NCBI GenBank assembly: GCA_963833025.1
Contig: CAWHWI010000003.1
Location: forward strand, 618,338 to 682,337
DNA from: an uncultured delta proteobacterium
GTDB taxonomy: Bacteria; Desulfobacterota; Binatia; Binatales; Binataceae
Length of the DNA stretch: 64,000 nucleotides
Direction: 5' to 3'
Shown one piece after another: positions 2,024-59,169 of the stretch. Numbering within the stretch: the first letter of the stretch is position 1; each line of letters begins with the position of its first letter. Below the pieces are notes generated by a model that saw only the letters and a list, made by a program, of their open reading frames with translations, was not told where the DNA came from and made no database searches. The position numbers and the translations under genes are program-made.

Positions 2024-2060
2024 TACAATTCACACTGACTATTCGCCCGGAGTAATCAGC

Positions 2061-2924: not shown

Positions 2925-2929
2925 CTTCT

Positions 2930-2990: not shown

Positions 2991-3000
2991 ATGCCCTTCT

Positions 3001-4488: not shown

Positions 4489-4508
4489 CTAGTTAGTCCG
4501 AGCCAGAC

Positions 4509-6008: not shown

Positions 6009-6060
6009 TTCAGTTTCGCTCTTCCCGTTTTGCCTTGAATTGGCGCGGCCGCCGAATCCG

Positions 6061-8136: not shown

Positions 8137-8151
8137 TTTTTCGTTGCTCAG

Positions 8152-8466: not shown

Positions 8467-8483
8467 CCCGATTCCCCCGCTCC

Positions 8484-8999: not shown

Positions 9000-9012
9000 G
9001 CAGCCGCGCGCG

Positions 9013-35752: not shown

Positions 35753-36480
35753 TAGATTCCCTCCAGCGCCGCGTTTTTCAGACCCGCGACGCCTTCGCGC
35801 AATTCGCTAATCTTCGGTCGCGATTATCCCCGCCTGACCAATCGGCCAGTGGCGATTGGGAGCATCCTAATATTCTGACCGAGGCAATGAAATAGCGCCA
35901 CTGCGCCAAAACCGGCTTCGTGCTATTAATAGTTCTTATGGCCACGCGCGATGCTCCCCAGCCGGGCGGGTACCGATTCATCGCCGTTATTTTTATCGCG
36001 ATACTGATCGACGCCTTCCTGTTGGCGCAGGTGCACGCAAACTTTCTTCACGACCACGGCTACGACCCCTTCCCTCGACACCCCGCCGTCGCCAGGCTCG
36101 TACCACCCTGACGCCGCGGATTGCGCACCGAGTTCAGGGATGAACTGTTCAGCCTGACGCCGGCTGATTGGACCTGCTACACATAGAGCATGGACTACTG
36201 TCAGGATGCCGCAAACTCGCGCCGCTGGCACACAGTCGTGTGGAGCCCGCTTCCGACGAAAAATGAATTTTGACGGAACGAAGCTACCGATAGTGGCTGA
36301 GCCGTCTGAAGACACACCATATGGTATGAGATTGCTGTTTTCGACTGAACTCGGTTAGTCGAAAACGCCTGTATCTAAGTATGATCCCACCCCAATTCCA
36401 CCTTGACTCGCGAGCGCGAGCGCCGGAGTTTTGGCTCAAGGCTGACTATTCTAAAAAATCTAAAAAAATTCGGAGAAACC

Positions 36481-43219: not shown

Positions 43220-44089
43220 TCAAGCGGCGATTTTGCTCTTCGCAAGATCGGCAAACGTGATCAGCTCGATTCCATTTCGAGCGATCGCATCGCGCACGCG
43301 CGCGCTGGTGAGAATCTCGACCTCGAGCTGCGCCTCGGGCGCGGGCGGGACTCCGCCGATATCGGCGGCCGGATGAAAATAAAGCTCCGTCGCACCATCG
43401 CGGATACGATCGATCACGCCCACGACATAGTCCTCGCTCAGATGACCGCTCTGATGAAGTCCAAACAGCGCGTCGGTCGAGGTTAGGCCGCGTTCTGTCA
43501 TCATGCGGTGTGTTCGGCGCGACAGCGTGCGGAAAATGATCGACTCGACGAGCTTACGCGGCGCATTGTCGCGGCGCAGCCGGATCGTTGTCATCACGCG
43601 CTCGCGCGGCAGCCTGATGCACGGCACTTTGTATTCCACCGCGAGGTCAACCAGAATATCGGCGAACAGCGGATGGACGTGGAAGTTCAGATGGCCGTCG
43701 ATATGGTTGAGGTAGCCGACCAGCTCGAGATGCCGCTCGACTTGCGCGCGCAGCTCGTCGGTCATCGCGGCGCGCATCGAGCGGTCGAAAAAATATCGCA
43801 TCCCCGCAGTCACGGGACTGTCGATGAACTCGCCCGAGGCGTTGACCGCGGCGCCGAGCCTCGAGGCATCGAGCACACTGCGTCCGCGGCATACAACGGC
43901 ATGCAGCCCCACGTCGAGCGCGGGATCGTCGCGTGCCAACTCGGCAGCGGCACGCGCGGCAGGCTCGGCGACCATCAGGCTCGCACTGCGCAAAATTCCG
44001 TCGCGACGCGCGCGCATGACGCCGGCGTTGACCTCAGGCGACAAGCCGAAGTCGTCGGCGTTAACGATCAGGCGCTTCAAACCGCCCAA
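43220..44089 (-). CDS. hpnK: ChbG/HpnK (YdjC-like) family deacetylase, hopanoid-associated
   Basis: N-terminal LIVNADDFGLS hallmark of YdjC/HpnK; divergent from hpnG. Confidence 0.75.
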   Translation of the reverse strand: MGGLKRLIVNADDFGLSPEVNAGVMRARRDGILRSASLMVAEPAARAAAELARDDPALDVGLHAVVCRGRSVLDASRLGAAVNASGEFIDSPVTAGMRYFFDRSMRAAMTDELRAQVERHLELVGYLNHIDGHLNFHVHPLFADILVDLAVEYKVPCIRLPRERVMTTIRLRRDNAPRKLVESIIFRTLSRRTHRMMTERGLTSTDALFGLHQSGHLSEDYVVGVIDRIRDGATELYFHPAADIGGVPPAPEAQLEVEILTSARVRDAIARNGIELITFADLAKSKIAA

Positions 44090-44184
44090 CCGTGGTCACT
44101 GAAAAGGAACACCGGCACAATTTTGCTAGCATCGCACGGTTCGCTCAAGCGCTGACTCCGAAAAATCAAAATGAGACGACGCGA

Positions 44185-44988
44185 TTGATTCTTCTCTTTT
44201 ACGCCTTCGCACGCGAGATCGCGCCTTTCAAGCGCCGACTGCGAAATCGCACTCCGCTCGCTCTGGACGGCTTACATGGCTTTCGCGCAGAGATCGGCGG
44301 CAAACAGTTTGCCATTGTCGGGCACGGAATCGGTCATCGGCGCGCGACCGAAACCGCGCGCCGCGCGTTCGATTTGATGCCCGGGGCGGAGTTGGTGATC
44401 GGCACGGGCGTCGTCGGCGCGCTCTCGAGTGGACTGAAGCCGGGCGACCTCGTTCTCTCCGACCGCGTTCTGACAATTGACGCTGACGGGCGAGTTGAGG
44501 AACAAATGACCGCCGTCGGCGACGCGCATCTGCGCGCAACCGGCCGCGCGCTTGCGTCCGCAGGTATCGCATACTCGACCGGCGCGATTTTGACATCGCA
44601 TCGCGTGCTCGCGACGGGCGCCGAGAAACGCCGCGCCAAGGAAAGCACCGGCGCGATCGCCGTGGACATGGAAACCGCCGCGATAGCCGCGGAAGCCGCC
44701 GTGCGCGGACTCCCGTTCGTCGCGATTCGCGCGGTGCTCGACGAAGTTGACGACGAAGTGGTCGGCGCCGCGATGGCCGACCAGGACGGCAACGTGCGGC
44801 CGCTCGCCGCGACGTCCTACCTCCTGCGCAATCCGGGCACTATGCTCAAGCTGCCGCGGATGATTCGAAACCTCTCGCGCGCGACTGCCGCAATCGCCGA
44901 CGCACTCACGGCGATCGCGCACGACGGCAAGGTTCCCGCGGCGGCTAAGCGTGCTCTCGCGCCGGCGGAGCGAAAGCGCCCGCGCTGA
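44185..44988 (+). CDS. hpnG: hopanoid-associated phosphorylase (PNP/MTA-nucleosidase family); start uncertain (44092 or TTG 44185)
   Basis: Nucleoside phosphorylase-like fold motifs GIGHRRA...AVDMETAAIA. Confidence 0.7.
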   Translation: MILLFYAFAREIAPFKRRLRNRTPLALDGLHGFRAEIGGKQFAIVGHGIGHRRATETARRAFDLMPGAELVIGTGVVGALSSGLKPGDLVLSDRVLTIDADGRVEEQMTAVGDAHLRATGRALASAGIAYSTGAILTSHRVLATGAEKRRAKESTGAIAVDMETAAIAAEAAVRGLPFVAIRAVLDEVDDEVVGAAMADQDGNVRPLAATSYLLRNPGTMLKLPRMIRNLSRATAAIADALTAIAHDGKVPAAAKRALAPAERKRPR

Positions 44989-45739
44989 AACCGCCGTCAA
45001 TCGGCACCGCGACGCCCGTGATGAAGCCCGCCTCGTCCGACGCGAGGAACGCCGCCAGCGCGCCGACCTCTTCCGGCTTGCCGTTGCGCCCCAGTGGATG
45101 CATGTTGCCGGTGCGCTCCCAAACTAACTGCGACGCGCCGGCGGGAACGGTGTTGCAATTCTCGGCGATCGGCGTTTCGATCACGCCTGGGCAAATCGAC
45201 ACGCATCGAATCTTGTGACGCGCGAAGTCGAGCGCGATTCCCTTCGACATGATCACGACGCCGCCCTTCGCCGCCTGGTAGGCGCCGAGATTCGGCACGC
45301 CTTCGATGCCCGCGCCGCTGGCGGTGTTGATAATCACGCCGCCGCCCTGCTTGATCATTTGTGGGATCGCATACTTGCAGCCGAAAAATACGCCTTTCAG
45401 GCACACGTCCACGACCCAGTCCCATTCTTCCTCGCTCGTGTCCACGACAGTTTTGGGCACGAAGACGCCGGCGTTGTTGAACAGGATGTCGAGACGGCCG
45501 AACGCGGCGATCGTTTCGTTGACCATGCGCTCGACTTCGGCGCCGATTCGCACGTCCACCGATATCGATTTCGCGACGCCGCCCGCCTTCTCGATCTCAG
45601 CCGCGGTGTTGCTCGCCGTTTCCGCGCGCACGTCGGCGACCATCACCTTCGCGCCTTCTTGCGCGAACCGAATCGCGCTGGCGCGCCCGATTCCCGAACC
45701 CGCGCCGGTTATCAACGCAACCTTGTCCTTGAGCAGCAT
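44945..45739 (-). CDS. SDR family oxidoreductase
   Basis: MLLKDKVALITGAGSGIGRA, NNAG, YxxxK. Confidence 0.83.
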   Translation of the reverse strand: MLLKDKVALITGAGSGIGRASAIRFAQEGAKVMVADVRAETASNTAAEIEKAGGVAKSISVDVRIGAEVERMVNETIAAFGRLDILFNNAGVFVPKTVVDTSEEEWDWVVDVCLKGVFFGCKYAIPQMIKQGGGVIINTASGAGIEGVPNLGAYQAAKGGVVIMSKGIALDFARHKIRCVSICPGVIETPIAENCNTVPAGASQLVWERTGNMHPLGRNGKPEEVGALAAFLASDEAGFITGVAVPIDGGFSAGAFAPPAREHA

Positions 45740-45817: not shown

Positions 45818-46717
45818 CTACGCGGTGGCGCGATGCAACTCGTGCTTGCGACCGCTCGTTGGCTTCCAGACAGGAAGATCGCGCTCGTAGGGAAAATCCG
45901 CGAGATGGCGTTCGATGGCGGCGGCGTCGCCCCAGGATTCGCGGCGGGTGAGGATGTGAATCGCGAGCACGGTGAACGGCAGATAGATAAACACGGCAGC
46001 CCACCCGATATTCGGCGCGTTGACTCGGAACAGCATCGCGATTCCGAAGATCACGATCCCTGCGTAGAGCGCCGGCCCCAGCAGCGCGCGCGAGGGCATG
46101 ACGGGAACCGAGCCGGCCGGCTTGTTCGCGCCGCGATTGAGTGCAGCGTCGAGCCACTGGAAAATCGCAATTGTGATCGCGGCGACGAAATACCATCCAA
46201 GATAGTTGCTGATCGGCACGCCGAAGTGCGGCCCCGGCGGATCGTACCAGAAAATTTTGCCGAGGAACCATCTTTCGCCGAGCACGCTCAACGGATCGAC
46301 GACCATGTCCACCATCACCATGAACAGCGCCGCCATCAGCCATACGCGCGGCGCTCGGCGAATCTCCCACGTGTCGAGAATCCGAATATCAACACCGCGC
46401 TGATAAAGCGGCGAACTCAGCAACAGCGCGACGGTGTAGCTGGCGAACGCGAGGAACGTGAACGACAGCGAATCCATGAACGGCACGCCGAACACCCAAA
46501 TCTCGCGCGCGCGACTCGCGTCAATATAGTGATACAGCCCGAATGGGAATCCGTTGTGGACCGAAGACCACTCGCACGCGAGCGACACGGCGTAGGTCAG
46601 CACCGTAAACAGCAGCGTCGTGCGCAGGCCAAAGTTCACAATCGCGATCAAGAGAAAACTCGCCAGGAAGATGAACACGTACGGGCGCAGCGCGATCGTG
46701 GATAGCAGCAGATGCAT
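45818..46717 (-). CDS. polytopic membrane protein (carotenoid-biosynthesis-protein/DUF422-like), downstream of hpnA
   Basis: 299 aa with ~7 hydrophobic helices; family assignment tentative. Confidence 0.45.
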   Translation of the reverse strand: MHLLLSTIALRPYVFIFLASFLLIAIVNFGLRTTLLFTVLTYAVSLACEWSSVHNGFPFGLYHYIDASRAREIWVFGVPFMDSLSFTFLAFASYTVALLLSSPLYQRGVDIRILDTWEIRRAPRVWLMAALFMVMVDMVVDPLSVLGERWFLGKIFWYDPPGPHFGVPISNYLGWYFVAAITIAIFQWLDAALNRGANKPAGSVPVMPSRALLGPALYAGIVIFGIAMLFRVNAPNIGWAAVFIYLPFTVLAIHILTRRESWGDAAAIERHLADFPYERDLPVWKPTSGRKHELHRATA

Positions 46718-46725
46718 CGCGGGGC

Positions 46726-47730
46726 CTATGCGGCGCTCTTGGTCGTCCCTTTGGATCTGAAAAATTCTATCGCCGACGCAATCGCCGCGTCGATCGGCCC
46801 CGGCGAATAGCCCAGCTCCGCGCGCGCCTTCGACGAGTCGAAAAACATCCGCTTGCGCGCCATCCGCACCTCGGTCAGACTGGCGCGCGGCGCGCGGCGC
46901 GTGACGGTGCGCGCGAACGCTTCAGCGCCCAGCGCATAGCCGAGAGCCACCGCGTAAGGAATTCGGATCTTCGGCGCAGGCAGCCCGGAAATTGCTGCGA
47001 GCCGTCCAAGAAATTCCTTGAGCGTGAGATTGTCGCCGCCCAGAATATATTTCTCGCCGATTCGGCCGCGCTCCGCCGCCAGCAGATGGCCGCGCGCGAC
47101 ATCCTCGACATCGACAATGTTCAACCCCGTTTCTAGATACGCGGGCATCCGCCGGCTCAGAAAGTCTACGATGATTCGGCCGGTCGGCGTCGGCTTGAAG
47201 TCGAGCGCGCCAATAGGCGTCGACGGATTCACGATCACCACCGGCGCGCCGGCGCGCGCGGCTTCCAGCGCCGCCTGCTCCGCCAGATACTTCGATCGCT
47301 TGTAGTGACCCGGCATGTCGGCGAGCGACGACGGCGTGTCCTCGCGTCCCGCTCCGCCGTGCGGAATCCCGAGCGCCCCCACCGTGCTGGTGTGAACGAT
47401 TCGCGAAACTCCCGCGGTGACCGCGGCCCGGATAACATACTGCGTGCCGGTAACGTTGGTCGCATACATCGGCGCCGAATCTGTAAGCCAGAGCCGGTAA
47501 TCCGCGGCGACGTGATAAACTTCGTCGCATCCCTTCACCGCGCCTTCGACCGAATCGAAGTACCGGAGATCGCCGCGCACCACCTCGATCGGCAGACCTA
47601 CCAGCGCGCTCAAATCCGCGTTCTCGCGCACCAGCACTCGTACCCGATCGCCTCGGGCAAGCAACGCCCGTACCACGTGGCAACCAACGAATCCGTTGCC
47701 GCCCGTCACCAATGCTAACTTGGTAGTCAT
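46726..47730 (-). CDS. hpnA: hopanoid-associated NAD-dependent sugar epimerase/dehydratase
   Basis: LVTGGNGFVGCHVVRALLARGD Rossmann N-terminus and YxxxK motif; operon context. Confidence 0.75.
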   Translation of the reverse strand: MTTKLALVTGGNGFVGCHVVRALLARGDRVRVLVRENADLSALVGLPIEVVRGDLRYFDSVEGAVKGCDEVYHVAADYRLWLTDSAPMYATNVTGTQYVIRAAVTAGVSRIVHTSTVGALGIPHGGAGREDTPSSLADMPGHYKRSKYLAEQAALEAARAGAPVVIVNPSTPIGALDFKPTPTGRIIVDFLSRRMPAYLETGLNIVDVEDVARGHLLAAERGRIGEKYILGGDNLTLKEFLGRLAAISGLPAPKIRIPYAVALGYALGAEAFARTVTRRAPRASLTEVRMARKRMFFDSSKARAELGYSPGPIDAAIASAIEFFRSKGTTKSAA

Positions 47731-47746
47731 TCGACTCGACGAATAG

Positions 47747-49111
47747 CTATTCGGCGGCCCGCGCGATTACGGCGGCGGCTGCGGCCCGTCCCGAAATCAC
47801 CGCGCTCTCAATCGTCGCCGGCAGCCCGGTCTGTATCCAGTCGCCGGCCAAAAAGAAATTCGCAATCGGCGTTTTCGCCATTGGACGCAGCTCATGCGAT
47901 CGAAGGTCTGGCGCCATCGTCGCGTTTTTCTCCTTCAGCACCAGCGACTTGACGACCTTCGCCGCGCGCGATACTGGAATCATCGCGTGGAGATCGTTTA
48001 TAACGATATCGAGGATCTCCTGGTTGCTGCGATCGACCAGCTTCCGCGCGCCGCTGATCACGAAGCTCAAGTAGCCCGGATGCGCCTCGCCGCGCTGCGC
48101 GAATATCTGACGTTTGTTGAATAGCCACTGAGTAGTGGTGCCGATAAACCCGATGAACGGTGAATTAGTCACTTCGCGATCGAGCCAGACGTGGACGCAG
48201 ATGATCGGCGAGCTCGAAAGACCTGTAAAGCGCGAGAAGAATGGATCTGCGACCGCGTTCTCGGGCAGAAACCGGAGCAGCTGAGGCGCCGGGACCGCGC
48301 TGATGAAGTCCGACGCCTCGATTCGCCGCCCGTCGCGAAGCCGCACGCTTTCGACCTGGCCCCGCTCGCCAACTTCCAGCATCTCGACGATCGAATGCGT
48401 CGCCACCGTCCCGCCGGCGCGCTCGACCAGCCGCTTCGCGCCCGTGCAGTACAAGTCGGTGAGGCCGACGCGGGAGTAAACGAACGCCGAGTCGCGGCGG
48501 CGCGAAAAAAACGCGCGCTTCAGGACTTCGGCCAATAGCTGCGCCGACGACAATTCCGGCTCGTCGTTCAGCGTCGCGATCGACATCGGGTACCAGAAGC
48601 ACCGGCGCGCGTGTTCCGACTGCCCGAGGCGATCCATCAGTTGCGCAACGGTCATAGTGCGGAGTTCGCCGCCGCCAAACCGTCTCATCGTGAGCATGCG
48701 AAGGCCGCCGCGCATAACGGAGATTCGCTCCGCGACACTCAGATGCCGGTAGCCGAGCAACGCCGCCGTCATGTGCAGCGGCCCTGGCAGCCGCGCCGTT
48801 TTCAGAGTCGCGCTCTGTCCGGGACCTGCGAGCATTTCGATCTCCAAATCCTCGTGAAACACCAACTGGTCGTACGCACCGATCCGCTTGAGGAAGTCGA
48901 GCGTCTCGCCGTAACAGCCCATCAGGACGTGCTGTCCGTTGTCGACGAAATCGCCGGTGTCCGCATCGGCGAACGAATACGCGCGCCCGCCGAGCGCCGG
49001 TTTTCCCTCGAGCACCGTGACCCGCATGCCGCGCTCCGCCAGCGCGACCGCGGCGCTGAGCCCGGCGAACCCGGCGCCGATCACGACCGTGTCTTTGATT
49101 ACGCGCGCCAT
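47747..49111 (-). CDS. hpnE: hydroxysqualene dehydroxylase (FAD-dependent amine-oxidase fold)
   Basis: VVIGAGFAGLSAAVALAERGMRVTVLEGKPALGGRA FAD dinucleotide-binding motif; adjacent to the two squalene-synthase-like genes. Confidence 0.8.
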   Translation of the reverse strand: MARVIKDTVVIGAGFAGLSAAVALAERGMRVTVLEGKPALGGRAYSFADADTGDFVDNGQHVLMGCYGETLDFLKRIGAYDQLVFHEDLEIEMLAGPGQSATLKTARLPGPLHMTAALLGYRHLSVAERISVMRGGLRMLTMRRFGGGELRTMTVAQLMDRLGQSEHARRCFWYPMSIATLNDEPELSSAQLLAEVLKRAFFSRRRDSAFVYSRVGLTDLYCTGAKRLVERAGGTVATHSIVEMLEVGERGQVESVRLRDGRRIEASDFISAVPAPQLLRFLPENAVADPFFSRFTGLSSSPIICVHVWLDREVTNSPFIGFIGTTTQWLFNKRQIFAQRGEAHPGYLSFVISGARKLVDRSNQEILDIVINDLHAMIPVSRAAKVVKSLVLKEKNATMAPDLRSHELRPMAKTPIANFFLAGDWIQTGLPATIESAVISGRAAAAAVIARAAE

Positions 49112-50035
49112 TTATCCGCGCAGCGAGCCGAAGCGGCCCACCGCCCACGCCCGGCCGACCAGGTAAAGCTTGTGCGGCGCGGAGAGGCTGTGGCGGCGGT
49201 CGAGCACGCGATAATTCGACTTGACGATTCGTCCGAGCAACGCGGCGTAGATCAGCCGCATCGCCTCCGCGGTCAACAGCGTCGCGCGATCTTCCGGCGC
49301 CAGCGCGCGCCGCGCCGCCGCGTAGAGTTCCTGCGCGCGTCGCGCCTCGAAGTCCATCAGGTTGACGAAGTTCGGCGTGTACACGCCGCCGATGATTTCC
49401 TCCTCGCTCACGTTAAATCGCGCGAGGTCTTCGAGCGGAAGATAAATTCGCCCGCGCGCCGCGTCCTCTCGCACGTCGCGAATAATATTCGTCAACTGAA
49501 GCGCGAGCCCGAGGTTCTCCGCGTAGGACTTCGCCGACGGATTGCGGTAGCCGAAAATCTCGATGCAGATGAGGCCGAGCGCCGACGCAACGCGATAGCA
49601 GTACGGCCGCAGCTCTTCCCAGCTTTGGTAGCGGTTGCGCGAGAGATCCATCTCCACGCCGTTGATGATTTCCTCGAACAGCTCCCGCGGAATGTTGAAT
49701 CGCCGCGCGCTATCGGTGAGCGCGCGTGAGAGAGCACGTGTCGGCGCGCCCGCATACACCCGGTCGAGTTCCTCGCGCCACCGCTTGAGCTGCAGCGCCG
49801 GCTCGCGAATCGATTCGTCGTCGGCGATATCGTCGATGAAGCGGCAGAATGCATAAACGGCGTGGAGCGCGCGGCGCCGTTCGGGCGGTAGCAGGATGAA
49901 CGCGTAGTAAAAGCTCGACCGCGAGCGCCGCGTGATTTCCGCGCAGCGTTCATAGTCGGCTTCGAGCGACGTGCCGTCGCGCCCGGCCGCTTGCTCGACG
50001 CCGGCGTCGCCGCCGTCAGACTTCAAGTCGTCCAC
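49112..50035 (-). CDS. hpnD: squalene/phytoene synthase family enzyme, presqualene diphosphate synthase-like
   Basis: YAFCRFIDDIADD and second Asp-rich motif region; HpnD assigned by gene order. Confidence 0.72.
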   Translation of the reverse strand: MDDLKSDGGDAGVEQAAGRDGTSLEADYERCAEITRRSRSSFYYAFILLPPERRRALHAVYAFCRFIDDIADDESIREPALQLKRWREELDRVYAGAPTRALSRALTDSARRFNIPRELFEEIINGVEMDLSRNRYQSWEELRPYCYRVASALGLICIEIFGYRNPSAKSYAENLGLALQLTNIIRDVREDAARGRIYLPLEDLARFNVSEEEIIGGVYTPNFVNLMDFEARRAQELYAAARRALAPEDRATLLTAEAMRLIYAALLGRIVKSNYRVLDRRHSLSAPHKLYLVGRAWAVGRFGSLRG

Positions 50036-50942
50036 GAATCGCGCTCCATCCGAGTTTCAGGTAGTCGAGTTTCGCTAATTCCGGACGCATCCGGAACACG
50101 TCGTAGTTGACGCGATCGATCGCGCGCAATATCGCCAGCCCGCCGCCCGCGAACATCACGATGTCGCGCCGCAGCCGCTTGTCGACGCGCTTGTGCAATT
50201 CTCCGCCCTCGACCAGCATCGCGCGCGCGACTCCCACCTCATGACGCATCAACTCCACGAATTCGCGCGACGACGTATGCGCCGCCAGATCGGCCGGCGT
50301 CACACCGAATCGTTCCATGTCGCGCCGCGGAAAATAAATTCTCCCCTTGTCGAGATCGACCGCAACGTCCTGCCAGAAATTGGCGAGCTGCAGGCCGCTG
50401 CAGACCAGATCCGACAGATGCTGCCGTTCGGGGTCGCGGTAGCCGAACAAATAAAGCACCAGCCGACCGACCGGGTTCGCCGAGTAGCGCGAATAGCCGA
50501 GCAGAGCTTCGAGCGTGTCGAAGCCCTTGAAATCCACGTCAGATCGAAACGCCGTCAGCAGGTCCTTGAACGGCTCGCGCGGAATATCAAAGCGGCGCAC
50601 CGTATCCGCCAGCGCGATAAACACCGGATGGCGCGGCGTGCCGGCGTACGCCAAATCGAGCTCGCGCTCCCATTGGTCGAGCATCTCGCGGTCATGATGC
50701 TCGTCGGCAAAGTCGTCGGCCATCCTCGCGTACGCATAAATCGCATACATGTGCGGGCGCATCTCGCGCGGCATCAGCCACGACGCGACGGTGAAATTTT
50801 CGTAGTGCGACTTCGCCAGCCGCGCGCAAAATTCGTACGCGCTCGCAACGTCGAACGTTCCCGGCGGCATCGACGCGTCACGCACCGCGCTCGATGTGTA
50901 CGACGCTGCTCCGCCCTGCACGTTGGCCCGCGCGCTTGCCAT
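50016..50942 (-). CDS. hpnC: squalene/phytoene synthase family enzyme, hydroxysqualene synthase-like
   Basis: HYENFTVAS...YARMADDFADE motifs; first of the SQS-like pair. Confidence 0.72.
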   Translation of the reverse strand: MASARANVQGGAASYTSSAVRDASMPPGTFDVASAYEFCARLAKSHYENFTVASWLMPREMRPHMYAIYAYARMADDFADEHHDREMLDQWERELDLAYAGTPRHPVFIALADTVRRFDIPREPFKDLLTAFRSDVDFKGFDTLEALLGYSRYSANPVGRLVLYLFGYRDPERQHLSDLVCSGLQLANFWQDVAVDLDKGRIYFPRRDMERFGVTPADLAAHTSSREFVELMRHEVGVARAMLVEGGELHKRVDKRLRRDIVMFAGGGLAILRAIDRVNYDVFRMRPELAKLDYLKLGWSAIRGRLEV

Positions 50943-50946
50943 CGTC

Positions 50947-52116
50947 TCAGGCTGCGACCGGTCGCGCTCCGATAAGTTCGCGCGCGGTGGCTCGCGCCCA
51001 TCCGTCGGTTTCGAGCAGATCTTCGATTGTTCGCGCCGCGGGATTGTGATGCCGATTCATCACCGTCTCGATATGACGCGGGATGTCCACGAATCGCACG
51101 CGCCCGGCCAGAAAACTCGCCACCAGTTCCTCGTTGGCGGCGTTGAGGCACGCGGTCATCGTGTTCCCCGCCGCCAGCGCCTCGTACGCGAGCCGCAGAC
51201 ACGGGAAGCGCCGCAGGTCGGGCTCCTCGAATGTCAGCCGCGAATTTTCCGCGAGCGAGAGCGGCTTCAGATGCGTCATCGGCAGCCGCTCCGGGTACGC
51301 CAGCGCGTACGCGACCGGAATCGCCATGTCGGGAATCGCCATCTCCGCGATCACCGAGCCGTCGATCATTTCCACCATCGAATGGATCACGCTCTGCGGA
51401 TGGATCACCACCGAGACTTCGCCCGCCTTGAGATCGAACAGCCAGCGCGCCTCGATCACCTCGAGCCCCTTGTTCATCAGCGTCGCGGAATCGATCGTAA
51501 TCTTGCTGCCCATCACCCAGGTTGGATGCTTCAGCGCTTGCTCGACCGTGATCGATTCGAAGCTATCGGTCGGCAGCTCGCGGAACGGCCCGCCCGACGC
51601 GGTCAGAATGATCCGCTTCATCGACTCGCGCCCGCGTCCTTCCAGGCATTGAAAAATCGCGTTGTGCTCGCTGTCCACCGGCAGCAGCCGCACTCGATTC
51701 TCGCGCACCGCCGCCGTGATCAGCTCGCCCGCAATCACCAGCACTTCCTTGTTGGCGAACGCGATGTCCTTGCCGGCCTTGATCGCGGCAAGCGTCGGCT
51801 GCAGGCCCATCGCACCGACCAGCGCCGACATCACCAGCTTCGCCTCGGGATGCGTCGCCACCGCGATCGCGCCGTCGAGTCCGTGCACAATCGTCACGCG
51901 CTGCGCACCGAGACGCGTCGCGAGTTCGCGCGCGAGTTCGGGCGTCGCGACCGACACGAGTTCGGGATGAAAGCGCTTCACTTGCTCAGTCAGCAGATCG
52001 AGGTTGCGTCCCGCCGCCATCGCGACCACGCGAAATCGATCGCTGAATCGGCCGGCCACGTCCAGCGTCGTGACGCCGACCGATCCGGTTGAGCCGAGAA
52101 TTGAAATCGCTTTCAT
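50947..52116 (-). CDS. dxr: 1-deoxy-D-xylulose 5-phosphate reductoisomerase
   Basis: ISILGSTGSVGVTTLDV...LLPVDSEHNAIFQCL signature. Confidence 0.92.
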   Translation of the reverse strand: MKAISILGSTGSVGVTTLDVAGRFSDRFRVVAMAAGRNLDLLTEQVKRFHPELVSVATPELARELATRLGAQRVTIVHGLDGAIAVATHPEAKLVMSALVGAMGLQPTLAAIKAGKDIAFANKEVLVIAGELITAAVRENRVRLLPVDSEHNAIFQCLEGRGRESMKRIILTASGGPFRELPTDSFESITVEQALKHPTWVMGSKITIDSATLMNKGLEVIEARWLFDLKAGEVSVVIHPQSVIHSMVEMIDGSVIAEMAIPDMAIPVAYALAYPERLPMTHLKPLSLAENSRLTFEEPDLRRFPCLRLAYEALAAGNTMTACLNAANEELVASFLAGRVRFVDIPRHIETVMNRHHNPAARTIEDLLETDGWARATARELIGARPVAA

Positions 52117-52126
52117 CGCGACTCGC

Positions 52127-54085
52127 TCAATGTGCCGCCGTCTCCGCCAGCCTCCGACGGAACCGCCCGAGCGCCATCAGCGGAAAGTAATGCGGGTACA
52201 TGTGGTAGCGAAGATAAAAATGATTCGGAAACCCGTTGCCGGTCGATTCTCTTTCGTCCCACGCGCCCTCGTCGTTCTGCCGCTCTGAGAGCCACTGCGC
52301 GCCGCGCATCGCAGGTTCGGTGATCTCCGACTCGCCCGCGATCAATCCGATTAGCGCCCACGCCGTTTGCGACGCGGTGCTGGTCCCGCGTCCGTGCCAC
52401 GCCGGATCTTTGTCCGACAGCGGGCTCTCGCCCCAGCCGCCGTCGGGATTCTGCTTCGACTTGAGCCACGCGACCGCACGCTTGATCCACGGCTCGTTGA
52501 TATCGACGCCGATCGCGCACAGCCCCGCCAGCGCCGAGTACGTACCGTAAATATAGTTGATACCCCAGCGTCCCCACCATCCACCCGCCGGCGATTGATT
52601 TTTCTTGAGCCAGTCGATCGCGTTCTTCGCCACCGGATGGTTGCTGCGGTAGCCGACCGAGGCCATCATCTCGAGCACATGGCCCGTGAGATCGGGGCAC
52701 GACGGATCAGTCACCGCTTCGACGTCCGCCAGCGGCAGATGATTGAGCCAGGTTGAATTGTTGTCGGCATCGAATGCCGCGAAGCCGCCGTCCTTCGACT
52801 GCATTCCCATCACCCAGTTCGCGCCGGCGCGGATCGCGCGTTCCCTCGCCGCGGCATCGTCGGCTTTCGAGTCCGCCATCACCGACAGGATCACCGCCGA
52901 ATCGTCCACGTCAGGATAGCAATCGTTGTAAAACTCGAACGCCCATCCGCCCGGCTCGAGCGCGGGCCGTTTCACCGACCAATCTCCCTTCTTGAAAATC
53001 TGATGATCGATCAGCCATTGCGACGTGTGCTTGAGCGCCGGGTGGTCGCCAGGCAATCCCGAGTCCAGCAACGCCCGTCCCGCCAGCGCCGTGTCCCAGT
53101 TGACCGACACGCACGGCATGTACATGTCGTTGTCGCTGAAATGCCAAATCAGTTCGTGCGATGCCTCGATCGCTTTCTTCAGCACCGGATGGTCGTTGCG
53201 GTAGCCGTTGGCTTTCAGAGCCATCGCGCTCAGCAGGTAGCACGGCTCGATTCCACCCCATGAGCCGTTGGCCTCCTGATGCTCGAGGAGCCAGTTTTCC
53301 GTGCGCCGCAGCGCACGTGCGCGCAAGGATTTGATTTGGTGCCGATCGTAAAGGCGCAGCGCCTTGTCGGCGAAATTGAGCGCGTTGCGCAGCGACAGCA
53401 ATTGTTTTCCGCGCGGCTGTTTGAACTTCGTGAAATGCGGCGGCTCGATGTACAGCTCGAGCACTCCCCGCTGGTAGTCGATTTTTTTCTCGGGACGCGC
53501 CGCCTGCAGCATCATCAGTCCCATCATTGTCCCGCGCGCCCACGATCCCAGCTCGTAAATATTGAACGGGAACCAGTTCGGAAAGAGCGCCAGCTCTACC
53601 GGCAGCGCGGCCGTCGCATCCCACGTTATCTGCCCCATCGACGCGAGGTAAAAGCGCGCGAGCGTCCCGCAGTTGACGATGCCGCCCTTCGACAGAATCC
53701 AGCGGCGCGCAGCCGCCAGCGGCTCGTCACCAGCGCGCATGCCGGTGAGCTTCAGCGCAAAATAACTTTCGATGGTCGTCGACAGATACCCTTCGCCGCC
53801 CTGGTAGAGCGCCCAACTCCCGTCCGGACTCTGCGTGTCCAGCAGATACTTCTTCAGCCGCGCTTCGAGCTCGACGTCAACCGTGTCCATGAAATGGTTG
53901 AAGATGATGAACTCCGCGTTCATCTCCGCATTCGCCTCGAGCGGCGCGTGCCAGTAGCCCTCGGGCTTCTGCAGCGCCAGCAGCGCGCGCTGGGCGCGAT
54001 CGACGGTGTAGTCAATCTTCGCGACGAACTCGTCATGCGGCGACATCGCAATCGCCGTGTTTCCAATTTCAATTGCCTGGCTCAT
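52127..54085 (-). CDS. shc: squalene-hopene cyclase
   Basis: 652 aa with multiple QW motifs (e.g. QNPDGGWGE, QSPDGSW) and DxDDTA-type active site region (DVDDSAV). Confidence 0.95.
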   Translation of the reverse strand: MSQAIEIGNTAIAMSPHDEFVAKIDYTVDRAQRALLALQKPEGYWHAPLEANAEMNAEFIIFNHFMDTVDVELEARLKKYLLDTQSPDGSWALYQGGEGYLSTTIESYFALKLTGMRAGDEPLAAARRWILSKGGIVNCGTLARFYLASMGQITWDATAALPVELALFPNWFPFNIYELGSWARGTMMGLMMLQAARPEKKIDYQRGVLELYIEPPHFTKFKQPRGKQLLSLRNALNFADKALRLYDRHQIKSLRARALRRTENWLLEHQEANGSWGGIEPCYLLSAMALKANGYRNDHPVLKKAIEASHELIWHFSDNDMYMPCVSVNWDTALAGRALLDSGLPGDHPALKHTSQWLIDHQIFKKGDWSVKRPALEPGGWAFEFYNDCYPDVDDSAVILSVMADSKADDAAARERAIRAGANWVMGMQSKDGGFAAFDADNNSTWLNHLPLADVEAVTDPSCPDLTGHVLEMMASVGYRSNHPVAKNAIDWLKKNQSPAGGWWGRWGINYIYGTYSALAGLCAIGVDINEPWIKRAVAWLKSKQNPDGGWGESPLSDKDPAWHGRGTSTASQTAWALIGLIAGESEITEPAMRGAQWLSERQNDEGAWDERESTGNGFPNHFYLRYHMYPHYFPLMALGRFRRRLAETAAH

Positions 54086-54138
54086 CTTTCACCCTTGCTT
54101 CGACTTAAGCCCACCCGTGAGCGCTCGCCGCGACCCGC

Positions 54139-55206
54139 TTACGGAATCACGGCGCATTTCAGAACTACTCCACGTTCGAGCATCTCAAACACTTCGGTCA
54201 GATCGTCAAGCCGCATTCGCGCGTTGACGATCGCGCCGGCATTCAGCGCACGCCCCGCCAGCAACTCGTAAGCGCGCCGCACGTCGCGCGGCCGAAAGTG
54301 AAACGGCGCCATCAACGTCAGATTGTCGTAATGCATCCGGCGTGTATCGACGCTGAGCGCAGTGCCTTCCGGACAGCCGCCGAAAAATACCACCCGCCCT
54401 CCGCGACGCACCCGCGCCAGCGCATCCTGCCATCCCTCGACTTGCCCCGTGCACTCGATCACCATGTCGGGGCCGAAGCCGCCGTTGAGCCGCGCGATTT
54501 CTGCGGCCGCATCGACGCTCCGCGCGTCGACGACGCGGTCCGCGCCCAAATCCTGCGCCCACTTCAGCCGCTCGGCGCCGCGCCCCACGACCGTCACCTC
54601 GCGCACGCCGGCCGCCTTCAGCACCAGCATGTGCAACAGGCCGAACGCGCCGCCGCCGATTATCGCCACCGTCTCGTGTTTGTCGGGACGTGCCATCTCC
54701 TGCGCGTACACCACGCACGAGAGCGGCTCGAGCAGCGCCGCTTCCTCGAACGGCAGATCCCCGGGTTTGATAAACGTGTTGCGCGCGACGACGTGCGCCG
54801 GCAACAGCAGCATGTCCGCGTACCCGCCATGCACCATTCGCCCGACCGCGTCGTCGCAAAGATTTTCCTGGCCATGCTGGCAGTAAAAACAGATTCCGCA
54901 CGGCGCAGTCGGCGCCGCCATGATTTCGTCGCCGGCCTTGAACGCCGTCACGCCCTCGCCCGCTTCGACCACGACGCCGGAAAACTCATGCCCGAATGGC
55001 ATCGGAAGTTTCCACATCGGATGTCCGCGCCGAAAGGTTTTCAGATCGGTGCCGCAACTCAATGTGCAGCGAATTTGAATCAGCAATTCGCCAGGCCCCG
55101 GATGCGGCGCGACGTAATCGCGCAACTCGAGGCGTCCCGGCTCGACCAGCACGGCCTGGCGCGAACGCGCGCCCGCTATTTCCGCCGCCGCTTCGAACGC
55201 GCTCAC
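54139..55206 (-). CDS. zinc-binding alcohol dehydrogenase (MDR family); GTG start overlapping ispA stop (GTGA)
   Basis: CGTDLKTFRRGHP...GHEFSGVVVEAGEGV zinc motif; GGGAFG Rossmann. Confidence 0.8.
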   Translation of the reverse strand: MSAFEAAAEIAGARSRQAVLVEPGRLELRDYVAPHPGPGELLIQIRCTLSCGTDLKTFRRGHPMWKLPMPFGHEFSGVVVEAGEGVTAFKAGDEIMAAPTAPCGICFYCQHGQENLCDDAVGRMVHGGYADMLLLPAHVVARNTFIKPGDLPFEEAALLEPLSCVVYAQEMARPDKHETVAIIGGGAFGLLHMLVLKAAGVREVTVVGRGAERLKWAQDLGADRVVDARSVDAAAEIARLNGGFGPDMVIECTGQVEGWQDALARVRRGGRVVFFGGCPEGTALSVDTRRMHYDNLTLMAPFHFRPRDVRRAYELLAGRALNAGAIVNARMRLDDLTEVFEMLERGVVLKCAVIP

Positions 55207-56180
55207 AGCTTGCGCTCCACGACGAACGTCGCGATATGCCGCAACGCGTCGGCGCGAGCGCCGAAGTCCGCAATCGCGCGATGAGCGCGGGTCTCGAGCT
55301 CGCGCGCCAGGTCCATCGAGCGCTCGATTCCCAGTATCGCCGGATACGTCGCCTTGCCGCGCTCGAAGTCCTTTTGCGTGCGCTTGCCCATCTGCTCGGG
55401 CGTGCCTTGAACGTCCAGCAAATCGTCGACGACCTGGAACGCCAACCCGAGCGCGCGCGCGTACGCGTCGAGCGACTCGATCTGCGATGTGGTCCCGCCG
55501 CCCAGGCGCGCACCGCCGCGCACCGACGCCAGGAACAGCGCCCCGGTCTTCTTGCCGTGCAGTTCTTCGAGCTCCTCGACCGTCTTCGACTTGCCCTCGC
55601 CGAGCAGATCGATCACCTGCCCCGCGACCATCCCGCTCGATCCCGCCGCCGTCGCGAGCTCCGCGACTGTCTCGAGCACCAGTGCCGGCGACGCGCTCCG
55701 GTCCGCCGACAGCGCCAGCACCTTGAATGCGTCCGTCAACAGCGCGTCGCCCGCGAGCGTCGCGATCGCTTCGCCGTAGACTTTGTGATTGGTCGGGCGT
55801 CCGCGCCGCATGTCGTCGTCGTCCATGCATGGCAGGTCGTCGTGGATCAGCGAGTAGGTGTGAATCATCTCGACTGCGCACGCGAGGCCCATCGCCGCTT
55901 CGATCTTGCCGCCGACCGCTTCGCACGCCGCAAGCACGAGCACCGGCCGCAGCCGCTTGCCGCCCGCCAGCAGCGAGTAGCGCATCGCTTCATGCAAGCG
56001 GGCCGCCGCGCCGGTAGGTTCCTCGACGCTATGTTTGAGCGCGAGCTCGATCGTGCGAGCGCGCTCCTTCAAATAGCTGTGCAAGTCGAACACGTTTCGT
56101 CTCTTATTGGATGCGGGCGACGCTTCTTTGATGCGGGATTTTTCCGCACGCGAACCTCCCCGCGCATCGCGAGCACTCAC
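55203..56180 (-). CDS. ispA: polyprenyl (farnesyl/geranylgeranyl) diphosphate synthase
   Basis: FARM LIHDDLPCMDDDDMRRG and SARM VVDDLLD. Confidence 0.87.
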   Translation of the reverse strand: MSARDARGGSRAEKSRIKEASPASNKRRNVFDLHSYLKERARTIELALKHSVEEPTGAAARLHEAMRYSLLAGGKRLRPVLVLAACEAVGGKIEAAMGLACAVEMIHTYSLIHDDLPCMDDDDMRRGRPTNHKVYGEAIATLAGDALLTDAFKVLALSADRSASPALVLETVAELATAAGSSGMVAGQVIDLLGEGKSKTVEELEELHGKKTGALFLASVRGGARLGGGTTSQIESLDAYARALGLAFQVVDDLLDVQGTPEQMGKRTQKDFERGKATYPAILGIERSMDLARELETRAHRAIADFGARADALRHIATFVVERKL

Positions 56181-56199
56181 GGGTTATCCGCTCGATTTC

Positions 56200-57204
56200 T
56201 CACGCCACGTAGTGCCGCACCATCCGCCACGAGTCCTTCAGATTCTTCCCGAACTCGAGCGCCACGGTGCCTTCGAATCCCGAATGCAGCTTGCAGTCGC
56301 GGCAGCGAAAATCCTGCTTGGTGCGATAGTACTCCCAATCCGTCGCCGCGTGCATCTCGTCGAGCGTCTTGTAGTGCCCGTTCGTGATCAGGTAGCAAGG
56401 CCCTTTCCATCCTTGCGGATTGCGCGTCACCGTCGTCCACGGACTGCACTGCATGTCGCGTTTGCCGACCAGGTAGTCCAGGTAAATCGGCGTGTTGATT
56501 ATCTTGTAGTCGTTCGCCATGTCGCGGACCTTGAAGAACTTCGCCGGCATCTCTTCCTTCTTCAGATACTCGTCGTCGTTCTGCAGCACCTGGTAGTGAT
56601 AGCCGGGACTGAGCAGCATCCCATCGACGCCCAGGCTGGTCAGGTACTTGACCATGTCCTCGAGCTCCTGGCCACTGGTCTCGCGGAACACGGTCGTGTT
56701 GGTCTGCACCCGGTAGCCCTTCTCCTTCAGCATCTTGATCATCTTCACGACGATGTCGAAATGCCCCTGCCTGTCGGTCACGCGATCGTTGGTCTCGCGC
56801 ATCCCGTCCAGATGCAGGTTGAAGCTGAGGTACGGACTGGGCGCCACCTGCTTGACGAATCGCTCGAGCAGAATCGCGTTCGTACAAATCATCACGTGAC
56901 GCTTCTGATCCTCGATCAGCCCTCGCGTCAGCGCCGCGATATGCTTGTACATCAGCGGCTCGCCGCCGCAGATCGACACGATCGGCGCGCCCGCCTCCTC
57001 CGCCGAATGCAGCGCCTCGTCGAGCGGCATCATGTCGCGGATCGTGTCCTTGTACTCGACGATTCGCCCGCATCCGATACATGCCAGGTTGCACGCATGC
57101 AGCGGTTCGAGCATCAGTACCAGTGGAAAATATTTTTCGCCCGCCCGCTTCTTCGCGCGGATGTAGCGGCCCAAGTCGATCATCTGTCTCAGCGGAATGC
57201 GCAT
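56200..57204 (-). CDS. hpnH: adenosyl-hopene transferase (hopanoid-associated radical SAM protein)
   Basis: CNLACIGC radical SAM motif in a ~334-aa HpnH-like protein; operon context. Confidence 0.85.
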   Translation of the reverse strand: MRIPLRQMIDLGRYIRAKKRAGEKYFPLVLMLEPLHACNLACIGCGRIVEYKDTIRDMMPLDEALHSAEEAGAPIVSICGGEPLMYKHIAALTRGLIEDQKRHVMICTNAILLERFVKQVAPSPYLSFNLHLDGMRETNDRVTDRQGHFDIVVKMIKMLKEKGYRVQTNTTVFRETSGQELEDMVKYLTSLGVDGMLLSPGYHYQVLQNDDEYLKKEEMPAKFFKVRDMANDYKIINTPIYLDYLVGKRDMQCSPWTTVTRNPQGWKGPCYLITNGHYKTLDEMHAATDWEYYRTKQDFRCRDCKLHSGFEGTVALEFGKNLKDSWRMVRHYVA

Positions 57205-57237
57205 AGCTCTCCTGCGATCAGGTTGAAGAAAAAAAAT

Positions 57238-57948
57238 TTAGGAGGACGGCGTGCTGCCGCCCTCCGATGTGGATGTCGCCGACGGACCGAACAGCCACTC
57301 GCCCACCATCGCCACCGCCCCTTCGGGGTCGATCGCATTTGCGCCCATGAACAAATATTCGATCAGCAATCCGTTCAGCGCCGACAGCAGGAACGCCGCC
57401 GCCGACTCGGGAGTCGTCCGCCGCGCGCAGATTCCCTTCTGCTGCGCGCCCGCGATCAGCTCGACCAGCATCGCGCGATACCCGCTGTAGAGCTTGAGCA
57501 CCTGCTCGTTCATGCTCTCCGACAGCTTCTGGTCGTGAAGCATCTGTGCCAGAAAAAAACGCACCGAGCTCGCGTTGTCGCGCACGAACGACAGGTACGA
57601 CTCGACCAGCTTCTCGATCTGCGCGCGCTCGTCCATCACCGCCGCTTCTTCCGCAAAATCGATAAAGTACGGCTCCAGCAGACGGTTCAGCACCGCCACG
57701 AACAGCTCTTCCTTGGTCTTGAAATGCCAGAAAATCAGTGCCTTGCTGACGTGCGCCTCGCGCGCCACTTCCGACATCGACGTCTCATGAAACCCGCGAC
57801 TGGCAAACAGCCGCATCGCCGCCTTCAGGATCTCGTCGCGCGAATCCTGAGACACCGTCCGCGGCTCCGCAATACCCACTTTGATCTGCGAAACGCCCAT
57901 ATCCCGGCTTCCGACCCCCGCTCTACTCCTATCGTCGCCAGTAGCCAC
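57238..57948 (-). CDS. TetR/AcrR family transcriptional regulator
   Basis: N-terminal HTH ...FASRGFHETSMSEVAREAHVSKALIFWHF. Confidence 0.8.
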   Translation of the reverse strand: MATGDDRSRAGVGSRDMGVSQIKVGIAEPRTVSQDSRDEILKAAMRLFASRGFHETSMSEVAREAHVSKALIFWHFKTKEELFVAVLNRLLEPYFIDFAEEAAVMDERAQIEKLVESYLSFVRDNASSVRFFLAQMLHDQKLSESMNEQVLKLYSGYRAMLVELIAGAQQKGICARRTTPESAAAFLLSALNGLLIEYLFMGANAIDPEGAVAMVGEWLFGPSATSTSEGGSTPSS

Positions 57949-58137
57949 AAAAATTCGCCCGATACGCGCTAAACCGAGCCGCCGTCATCCTGCGGTCTCG
58001 AAATAGCCGCTAACCATTCGGTCAATGGAAACTTGCCCGTCACACTCTCGAAAGTCAAGAGCGACAGTCCGAGCGGTCAGTCGGTCAGCGCGAACAAAAT
58101 GTTCCGCGCGAAACTATTTCGCTCTAACTATTTGATT

Positions 58138-59169
58138 TTATGGGAGATTTATCTCAACGCCGCAGCCAATAGATGACTTCCGCGCAGCGTCAATTAGCAC
58201 CAGTGCAACACGCGCCTCGGCTAGGTTACGCTTCGCGACAACGGAATTGGTTCCTTCGGTGACCGCTCGCTCGAACTCCTCTGCCACCCCGCCGAACCAC
58301 GCCGAATGGTACGAGTCGTCGGCCATGTCCGCCTCCGACAGGTCTTCGACCTTCCCGGACCGATCGGTAAGCGTCACCCGATCCCCCTCAATCTCGATAC
58401 ACGCGCGCTCTCCATAGATTAACGCCGAGGTCCTGCGCACCGGCGCGCGCCACGAAAGATGTGCCCGGGAGAACGATCCGTCTCCGAAACGGATTCGCAC
58501 GTCCGCAACATCATCGACGTCCACGCCCGCTGGCGATTCGAGCCGCGCCGAAACCGACACCGGTTTTTCGTAGCCTATAAGCCAATACATAAGGTAGAAG
58601 ACGTGCCATCCGTGATCGATCAGAATCCCGCCCCCCGACGCCGCCGACGCCCGCCACTTCCCGCCGCTGCCGCCAGCGCCGGCTGGCTCGGTCCTCAGTC
58701 GATCGATCGACACAAATCGAATCGCGCCCAGCATGCCGGTCTCGATCGCGCGCCGCGCAGCTGCGTACGATGGCGCGTACTTCCAATTGTGAACGCACAT
58801 CAGAATGCGCCCCTTCTCCGCCGCGAGCGCGGCAAGTTCATCGAACTCGCCAAGCGAAAGCGCAAGCGGCTTCTCGACCATCACATGCGCCCCCGCGCCC
58901 AATGCAGCGAGAGCAGCCTGATGATGCATCCCAGGCGGGCTCGCAACATCCACAAAATCAGGCGCCTCGCCGTCAAGCATCAGCTCGAGGTCGTCATACA
59001 CGCGAACACTCTTGATAAGCCGAATAGCCTCGTGCCGCCGCTCGGAAACAGGATCATGAACCGCGCAGATAGAAACATTCTCGCGCAAGCGCCACCCCGG
59101 CAGATGAGCCCGAGCAGCGACCTCGCCAAACCCGGAAAAAGCCCCCCGCAATTTTGATTCGATAGCCAC
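58138..59169 (-). CDS. Gfo/Idh/MocA family oxidoreductase
   Basis: N-terminal Rossmann fold and EKP motif (HVMVEKPLALS). Confidence 0.8.
   Translation of the reverse strand: MAIESKLRGAFSGFGEVAARAHLPGWRLRENVSICAVHDPVSERRHEAIRLIKSVRVYDDLELMLDGEAPDFVDVASPPGMHHQAALAALGAGAHVMVEKPLALSLGEFDELAALAAEKGRILMCVHNWKYAPSYAAARRAIETGMLGAIRFVSIDRLRTEPAGAGGSGGKWRASAASGGGILIDHGWHVFYLMYWLIGYEKPVSVSARLESPAGVDVDDVADVRIRFGDGSFSRAHLSWRAPVRRTSALIYGERACIEIEGDRVTLTDRSGKVEDLSEADMADDSYHSAWFGGVAEEFERAVTEGTNSVVAKRNLAEARVALVLIDAARKSSIGCGVEINLP

Follow-up and report, generated by a model that had tools for sequence, protein, structure and literature searches.

A hopanoid biosynthesis operon of fixed gene order in Candidatus Binatus, with an embedded zinc-type dehydrogenase and a candidate TetR-family regulator

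Hopanoids rank among the major membrane lipids of bacteria and serve as geological biomarkers, and two gaps in what is known of their synthesis concern the enzyme that turns ribosylhopane into bacteriohopanetetrol (BHT) and the dedicated regulators of hopanoid operons. The stretch of DNA analysed here, a window of 64 kb assigned to Candidatus Binatus (family Binataceae, abundant uncultured bacteria of soil and peat), raises a question that touches both: why should a cluster of hopanoid (hpn) genes contain an alcohol dehydrogenase (ADH) gene that overlaps ispA, and a gene for a TetR-family regulator at its head? The best explanation overall, towards which we lean slightly, is that this is the core hopanoid operon of the Binataceae, that TetR would control it, and that ADH would be an integral member with a redox role on the hopanoid side chain. 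The nearest proteins and loci belong to metagenome-assembled genomes (MAGs) of Candidatus Binatus and other Binataceae from soil and peat (the Microflora Danica, SPRUCE and Stordalen palsa samples), and it is solely from such assemblies that the organism is known.

The identity of the cluster as the core operon for hopanoid (bacteriohopanepolyol) biosynthesis of this genome can be taken as nearly certain from its gene content. Protein families were assigned by the curated cut-offs of NCBIfam together with Pfam, and the models for HpnH, squalene-hopene cyclase (SHC), HpnC, HpnD, HpnE and HpnA were all exceeded (Table 1), which bears out the hopanoid operon called by a first-pass annotation of this DNA. 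The three-enzyme route to squalene is present, with the genes for HpnD, HpnC and HpnE adjacent and each product above its curated cut-off. For IspA, the models for CrtE and for geranylgeranyl diphosphate synthase score under their cut-offs. The eleven genes from tetR to that of a PF04240 membrane protein had been described as co-oriented and tightly packed; their open reading frame (ORF) boundaries match exactly and all lie on the minus strand. The gap between tetR and hpnH is 33 nt and that between hpnH and ispA 19 nt, after which ispA and the ADH gene overlap by 4 nt, the GTGA at 55206–55203 holding the ispA stop and the ADH start, just as the proposal of translational coupling had it. A gap of 53 nt separates the ADH gene from shc, followed by 10 nt between shc and dxr, 4 nt between dxr and hpnC, an overlap of 20 nt between hpnC and hpnD, 0 nt between hpnD and hpnE, 16 nt between hpnE and hpnA, and 8 nt before the PF04240 gene. 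Except for tetR–hpnH and ADH–shc, the non-overlapping gaps in the block are therefore 0–19 nt.

The arrangement is fixed across the family Binataceae. A scan based on ADH, with one genome taken per species, gave 80 loci, all from Binataceae, of which pieces of about 21 kb were compared; synteny was read by tblastn with the proteins of the window and followed as far as the contigs extend. To that extent the order Gfo/Idh/MocA-TetR-HpnH-IspA-ADH-SHC-Dxr-HpnC-HpnD-HpnE-HpnA-PF04240, and then the HpnG-like protein and HpnK, was found in the 80 species loci, where an occasional gene is missing from the synteny table because frameshifts in long-read MAG assemblies split some genes. In particular, tetR adjoins hpnH in 68 loci and dxr lies between shc and hpnC in 61. 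A second sample was independent of ADH: a search with HpnH aimed at other phyla returned 120 matches, every one from Binataceae, and the three loci with the most divergent HpnH proteins among them (77–79% identity) all show the identical order, with ADH between ispA and shc and with dxr and ispA as fixed members of the block. Across the loci the identity of ADH to the protein of the window falls to about 67%. In the divergent half of the loci its median identity is 71.8%, compared with 69.5% for SHC, 67.8% for IspA and 67.9% for HpnE, and ADH is thus as well conserved as SHC. The start-stop overlap with ispA is kept in 75 of the 80 loci as NTGA (GTGA, ATGA or TTGA), which means that it survives changes of the start codon. 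The evidence for conservation is drawn from this one family of uncultured bacteria.

Table 1. Features of the hopanoid region in the order of transcription of the operon, followed downstream to hpnR (scores in bits, with the curated cut-off where one applies).
Feature	Position	Strand	Models and scores	Remarks
Gfo/Idh/MocA-family NAD(P) oxidoreductase	58138-59169	-	PF01408 + PF22725	directly upstream of tetR
Degenerate second inverted repeat	58061-58080	-		CTGACCGCTCGGAC
Sigma-70-like promoter	58030-58058	-		-35 TTGACT (58058-58053), 17-nt spacer, -10 CAAGTT (58035-58030)
Operator-like element TTGACCG-N3-GGTTAG	58010-58025	-		invariant; immediately after the -10 hexamer
TetR-family regulator	57238-57948	-	PF00440 74; TetR_C_6 30.5
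Terminator-like stem-loop	57229-57265	-		10 bp stem (8 G-C), then TAA and eight T; reaches into the end of tetR
HpnH, radical-SAM adenosylhopane synthase	56200-57204	-	TIGR03470 380 (cut-off 225); PF04055 + DUF3463
IspA, farnesyl diphosphate (FPP) synthase	55203-56180	-	NF045485 369 (cut-off 275)
ADH, MDR-superfamily zinc alcohol dehydrogenase	54139-55206	-	PF08240 96; PF00107 83	355 aa
SHC, squalene-hopene cyclase	52127-54085	-	TIGR01507 709 (cut-off 431)
Dxr, deoxyxylulose phosphate reductoisomerase of the methylerythritol phosphate (MEP) pathway	50947-52116	-	NF009114 529 (cut-off 461)
HpnC, hydroxysqualene synthase	50016-50942	-	TIGR03464 317 (cut-off 250)
HpnD, presqualene diphosphate synthase	49112-50035	-	TIGR03465 326 (cut-off 279)
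HpnE, hydroxysqualene dehydroxylase	47747-49111	-	TIGR03467 411 (cut-off 283)
HpnA, hopanoid-associated short-chain dehydrogenase/reductase (SDR), sugar epimerase-like	46726-47730	-	TIGR03466 454 (cut-off 368)
PF04240 (CruF-like carotenoid 1,2-hydratase family) membrane protein	45818-46717	-	PF04240 84	ends the tight block
Classical SDR oxidoreductase	44945-45739	-	PF13561 + PF00106	78 nt downstream of the PF04240 gene
HpnG-like nucleoside phosphorylase	44092-44988	+	PF01048; TIGR03468 105 (below cut-off 187)	convergent with the operon
HpnK, BHT-GlcNAc deacetylase family	43220-44089	-	TIGR03473 248 (cut-off 233)
Aldo-keto reductase, NADP(H)-type	36403-37494	+		adjoins hpnR
HpnR, hopanoid C-3 methylase	34241-35752	-	TIGR04367 855 (cut-off 650)	8 kb from the cluster

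ADH is a member of the medium-chain dehydrogenase/reductase (MDR) superfamily, with a GroES-like ADH_N domain, a Rossmann ADH_zinc_N domain and the ligands for a catalytic zinc. These ligands, C51, H73, E74 and E160, align to those of sorbitol dehydrogenase (SDH) and are invariant in 10 orthologues, and the four cysteines of a structural zinc site (C103, C106, C109 and C117) are likewise invariant among the orthologues. When the protein was compared with the named MDR equivalogs, no NCBIfam cut-off was reached: the best score was for L-threonine 3-dehydrogenase (TDH; 153 bits vs 380), and scyllo-inosose 3-dehydrogenase (IolM; 146 vs 450) and TIGR03366 (107 vs 328) were also below threshold. 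The last of these carries the label ‘HpnZ_proposed’, a name that belongs to phosphonate metabolism rather than to hopanoids, and it was rejected, as was a role in bacteriochlorophyll synthesis as BchC (46 bits vs 291). Among solved structures, the nearest are a putative dehydrogenase from Sinorhizobium (4ej6), sorbitol dehydrogenases (1pl6) and threonine dehydrogenases, with E-values of 1e-33 to 1e-43. By family, then, ADH appears to be a polyol-dehydrogenase-like MDR enzyme. With the MDR polyol dehydrogenases (1pl6, L-threonine dehydrogenase, the ketose reductase 1e3j and 4ej6) it has in common the fold, the Cys/His/Glu/Glu zinc site and the GxGxxG motif, although the similarity is low and its gene lies in a context of lipid biosynthesis, not of sugar metabolism. 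The Cys4 lobe that binds the structural zinc is a further difference from human SDH, where we take it to be lacking.

The sequence also offers a clue to the cofactor. Where the second Rossmann strand ends, NAD-dependent relatives have Asp or Glu (human SDH reads ‘VVVTDLS’, butanediol dehydrogenase ‘YAVELS’). At this position ADH has G208-R209 within ‘VTVVGRG’, and 4ej6 has Thr-Arg. By the usual rule for MDR enzymes, the replacement of the acidic residue by Gly-Arg points to the use of NADP(H), so that ADH is probably NADP(H)-dependent; presumably the replacement is of the same kind as that in the NADP(H)-dependent ketose reductase 1e3j.

Considering the pathway as a whole, a place for such an enzyme can be suggested. 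Dxr and IspA supply FPP, from which HpnD, HpnC and HpnE make squalene, and SHC makes diploptene. HpnH then adds an adenosyl group, the origin of the C35 side chain, an HpnG-type enzyme gives ribosylhopane, and the conversion of ribosylhopane to BHT needs a reduction. The enzyme for this last step ‘has not yet been established’ (PMC12583986), and recent literature also describes the step as ‘non-enzymatic’; PMC12583986 cites an NADPH-dependent activity that converts ribosylhopane to BHT (Bodlenner et al., 2015). In the mechanism that we propose, ADH would belong to the operon as a full member, would be translated along with IspA and would catalyse a redox reaction on the C35 side chain, which is polyhydroxylated. 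Most plausibly, ribosylhopane in its open-chain aldehyde form would be reduced to BHT, as a solution particular to this lineage and not a universal one. Whether ADH acts in hopanoid or isoprenoid metabolism at all we consider evenly balanced on what its sequence and context suggest, and its specific identity as a ribosylhopane reductase would be an unlikely case.

The second part of the question concerns TetR. The start of its gene is ambiguous (GTG at 57948 or ATG at 57900), none of the curated equivalogs was reached, and among solved structures the protein gave generic matches alone (MtrR, TtgR and RutR), from which no ligand can be inferred. More is to be learned from the DNA upstream. An alignment of 67 loci, anchored on the motif TTGACCG-N3-GGTTAG, revealed a promoter-like pair of hexamers just ahead of that motif, in which the -35 TTGACT and the 17-nt spacer are conserved among the loci. 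A simple scan of the window alone for the sigma-70 consensus had missed this promoter because the -10 hexamer is degenerate in this genome: it reads CAAGTT here and in the close locus L001, and is TAAAGT-like in most relatives, a difference that may mean weaker basal expression in this lineage. The motif itself was present upstream of tetR in 67/67 loci tested; one exact copy was found in each of 72 loci of about 21 kb, always upstream of tetR, the 64-kb window likewise has a single exact copy, and none was found in the loci from outside the Binataceae. As it directly follows the -10 hexamer, the element lies at the expected start of transcription, the classic place for a repressor to bind, and it is a candidate operator for TetR. 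A second inverted repeat, of the type CCTGACC-N3-GGTCAGG, stands directly after the stop codon of the Gfo/Idh/MocA gene in some loci (L038, L056 and L063) and is degenerate in the window; its half-site resembles that of the operator-like element, and it could be a second site or the stem of a terminator.

At the other end of tetR, the stem-loop listed in Table 1 is the strongest terminator-like site between 43000 and 59500, with a minimum free energy of -21.4 kcal/mol. A stem at least as strong as -12 kcal/mol is found at this place in 52/77 loci and is accompanied by a T-rich tail in 31/77, mainly in the close Binatus loci. Since hpnH begins so soon after tetR, the hpn genes must either be read through this hairpin or start inside tetR, and its position makes simple co-transcription of tetR with the operon uncertain; it may serve to attenuate transcription from the regulator into the operon. 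Of the suggestion that TetR is a pathway regulator, the conserved promoter-like pair and the invariant element speak in favour, whilst the terminator-like hairpin before hpnH qualifies it. On balance, TetR would be somewhat more likely than not to regulate the operon. We envisage that transcription would start at the conserved sigma-70-like promoter, that TetR would bind TTGACCG-N3-GGTTAG at the transcription start and so repress its own gene as well as the hpn genes, the latter being reached by transcription that passes through the hairpin at the 3′ end of tetR, and that a lipophilic ligand would release it from the element. This resembles the TetR repressors of lipid and efflux operons (MtrR, TtgR, FadR, FasR and PsrA), which likewise combine an N-terminal helix-turn-helix with an all-helical ligand domain, are encoded directly upstream of, and co-directionally with, the presumed target and have an operator-like site over the transcription start. 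Similarity to those proteins is only generic, however, at 40–67 bits, and the site here is a weak palindrome. No described hopanoid-specific TetR was found in the literature that we searched.

How far does this locus depart from known hpn clusters? SHC, HpnC, HpnD, HpnE, HpnH, HpnA, an HpnG-like protein and HpnK are co-located here, much as they are in the canonical clusters of Zymomonas, Rhodopseudomonas, Burkholderia and Streptomyces. In contrast to those, the Binataceae block is without hpnB, hpnN, hpnI and hpnJ, has dxr as its MEP gene and runs in the order hpnH-ispA-ADH-shc-dxr-hpnCDE-hpnA. At its head stands a TetR gene together with a conserved operator-like site, and the MDR ADH and the PF04240 protein are fixed members. 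Genes for isoprenoid supply within hpn clusters are already known: on a megaplasmid of the Burkholderiaceae (Mycetohabitans), ispH adjoins hpnH with dxs nearby, and the hpn cluster of Streptomyces coelicolor presumably has a polyprenyl synthase, ispG and dxs embedded in it. The first-pass annotation had read dxr and ispA as a sign of dedicated precursor channelling; both genes do lie inside the hopanoid operon, but co-location supports co-expression at most. Its view that ADH and TetR are not standard hpn genes holds, and their conservation together with hpn genes, also asked about there, is found in 83 Binataceae loci but not among the nearest relatives of ADH outside the family.

The closest parallel comes from Acidobacteria, whose hpn clusters carry an ispA-shc-hpnH module as well as hpnC-hpnD-hpnE (PMC5462960). 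The acidobacterial clusters A, B and C contain the zinc alcohol dehydrogenases ug1 (about 370 aa) and ug2 (about 350 aa), with functions ‘not established’ (Sinninghe Damsté et al., 2017; PMC5462960, Table S1); ug2 directly precedes hpnC-hpnD-hpnE and ug1 follows hpnA-hpnG. The ADH of the Binataceae resembles them as a zinc enzyme of about 350–370 aa beside hpn genes, a likeness of description, but differs in its place, lying between ispA and shc and overlapping ispA rather than before hpnC or after hpnA-hpnG. A zinc ADH in an hpn cluster therefore has published precedent and the idea is less new than had been implied. The locus is a lineage-specific version of a known cluster, distinguished by the order around dxr, the leading TetR and its site, the overlapping ADH and the PF04240 protein. 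Two short contigs labelled as Candidatus Acidiferrales or Acidoferrum (L019 and L036; proteins P0006 and P0020) have the Binataceae gene order with an ADH of 81–91% identity, and these are probably mis-binned Binataceae rather than acidobacterial hpn clusters.

To look for relatives of ADH linked to hpn genes elsewhere, a full HMMER scan of 1.8 billion representatives was made, in which full-length relatives outside the Binataceae clade are at most 48% identical, and a profile of these relatives was used together with nine readable genomic contexts, one contig that was too short being left out. Two acidobacterial relatives examined lie in ADH-ADH-cupin modules and are not linked to hpn genes. 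With these relatives both distant and, in the nine contexts, never next to hpn genes, ADH looks like a family-specific recruit into the operon. The ADH-ADH(-cupin) module is itself kept across Desulfuromonadota, Nitrospirota and Acidobacteriota. An shc on a Trichlorobacter plasmid is a lone gene amid transposases and is uninformative.

Several observations count against a TetR-controlled operon in which ADH acts on the side chain. The operator-like element is a weak palindrome, its half-sites agreeing at 4/7 positions, and the hairpin at the end of tetR may cut the hpn genes off from the promoter of tetR. The nearest relatives of ADH outside the Binataceae have hpn genes adjacent in 0/9 contexts (from Desulfuromonas, Nitrospirota, Acidobacteriota and metagenome bins), and in seven of these nine (L081-L084, L086, L087 and L094) two ADH genes form a module in tandem, frequently accompanied by a cupin gene. 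Conservation within one family of rigid synteny could be the product of inheritance alone, which would hold even a passenger gene in place. The hpn cluster of the Burkholderiaceae has no such ADH, the expected co-occurrence with hpnH and hpnG across BHT producers fails in that it holds in Binataceae only, and, as BHT producers are generally without such an ADH, the enzyme is excluded as the general reductase. The polyol dehydrogenases that have been characterised use secondary alcohols and ketones as substrates rather than terminal aldehydes. The Gfo/Idh/MocA protein, the SDR, HpnA and the aldo-keto reductase are equally plausible reductases, and the coupling to ispA, like the acidobacterial ADH in front of hpnC-D-E, fits a role before cyclisation equally well.

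These points can be assembled into other explanations. TetR might control itself or a distant target, with the hpn promoter lying inside or after tetR and the element being a 5′-terminal stem-loop of the RNA, a possibility that we rate as doubtful but worth keeping in mind. The canonical terminator-like hairpin and T-run that close tetR would suit it, and as RNA the element could fold into a stem of 6 bp, two of them G-U, capped by a variable tetraloop. However, the 33 nt between tetR and hpnH leave no room for a promoter after the hairpin, the T-rich tail is lacking in over half of the loci, and the stem of the element shows zero covariation over 72 loci though its centre varies, a pattern that fits recognition by a sequence-specific protein. 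For ADH, action before cyclisation would mean salvage of farnesol or farnesal with IspA, or work on hydroxysqualene and the intermediates of the HpnC and HpnE steps. The position of ADH before shc, its coupling to ispA in most loci (75/80) and the place of ug2 directly ahead of hpnC-hpnD-hpnE (PMC5462960) are what this has to recommend it, but the three-enzyme squalene route is complete without ADH, and the characterised enzymes nearest to it, the polyol, threonine and ketose dehydrogenases, handle small hydrophilic substrates and not terpenoid alcohols; we regard such a role as improbable. We take the same sceptical view of the idea that ADH is a passenger, a gene of the ADH-ADH(-cupin) module that was inserted in the ancestor of the Binataceae, does an unrelated polyol or carbonyl job and is held by rigid synteny. 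The tandem modules of its nearest relatives in Desulfuromonas, Nitrospirota and Acidobacteriota, which have no hpn genes around them, are what would be expected of a passenger, and all of the evidence linking ADH to hpn comes from one family. Against this, ADH is kept in 83 loci down to 67% identity with conservation equal to that of SHC, the 4-nt overlap is preserved through changes of start codon, and the cluster does turn over, as is seen from the SDR, a gain confined to the close Binatus loci.

The explanation with an integral ADH and a controlling TetR is still the one that we prefer. Its boldest form, in which ADH would be the first assigned ribosylhopane reductase, the acidobacterial zinc ADHs its analogues and TetR the first dedicated hopanoid repressor to sense a lipid of the pathway, is a long shot. 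For both gaps the fixed operon of the Binataceae provides candidates that can be cloned: a putative polyol dehydrogenase of the NADP(H) type, probably translated along with IspA, and a TetR whose candidate site of 16 nt is defined. Should ADH be unrelated to hopanoids, the locus would be no more than a known cluster in a lineage-specific form that is well conserved.

The tight block ends with the gene for the PF04240 protein, which follows hpnA in 58 loci and also in the three chosen by HpnH; the median identity of the protein in the divergent loci is 76.7%, above that of SHC. The CruF models score far under their cut-offs on it; the protein might hydrate a double bond of hopene or squalene. 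In the literature searched, no paper was found that ties the CruF-like or PF04240 family to hopanoids or hpn genes.

The hopanoid region extends beyond the bounds given to it at first, with the SDR, HpnG-like and HpnK genes downstream, the Gfo/Idh/MocA gene upstream and hpnR farther off (Table 1). About 190 nt, holding the promoter-like region, separate the Gfo/Idh/MocA gene from tetR; the two adjoin in 63 loci, and also in the divergent loci L090 and L091. The SDR gene, which lies between the PF04240 and HpnG-like genes, is limited to the close Binatus loci (L001-L035) and absent from divergent Binataceae loci. The cluster is therefore not static, and the SDR gene appears to have been inserted recently. 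The genes for HpnK and the HpnG-like protein diverge, and their longest ORFs begin only 2 nt apart (44089–44092), so that at least one of the true starts is probably further inside its ORF. The aldo-keto reductase beside hpnR is an aldose-reductase-type enzyme and is conceivable as an alternative candidate for the ribosylhopane reductase.

In the divergent Binataceae locus L090, the Gfo/Idh/MocA gene is preceded, within 1131–9099, by genes for a class-III aminotransferase of the same Pfam family as HpnO, for HAD hydrolases, for a nucleotidyltransferase, for a CDP-alcohol phosphatidyltransferase and for a B12-radical SAM protein. These may be a set for modification of the side chain or headgroup; none of them is found within the window studied here. 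The remainder of the 64 kb consists of housekeeping genes, a nuo operon among them.

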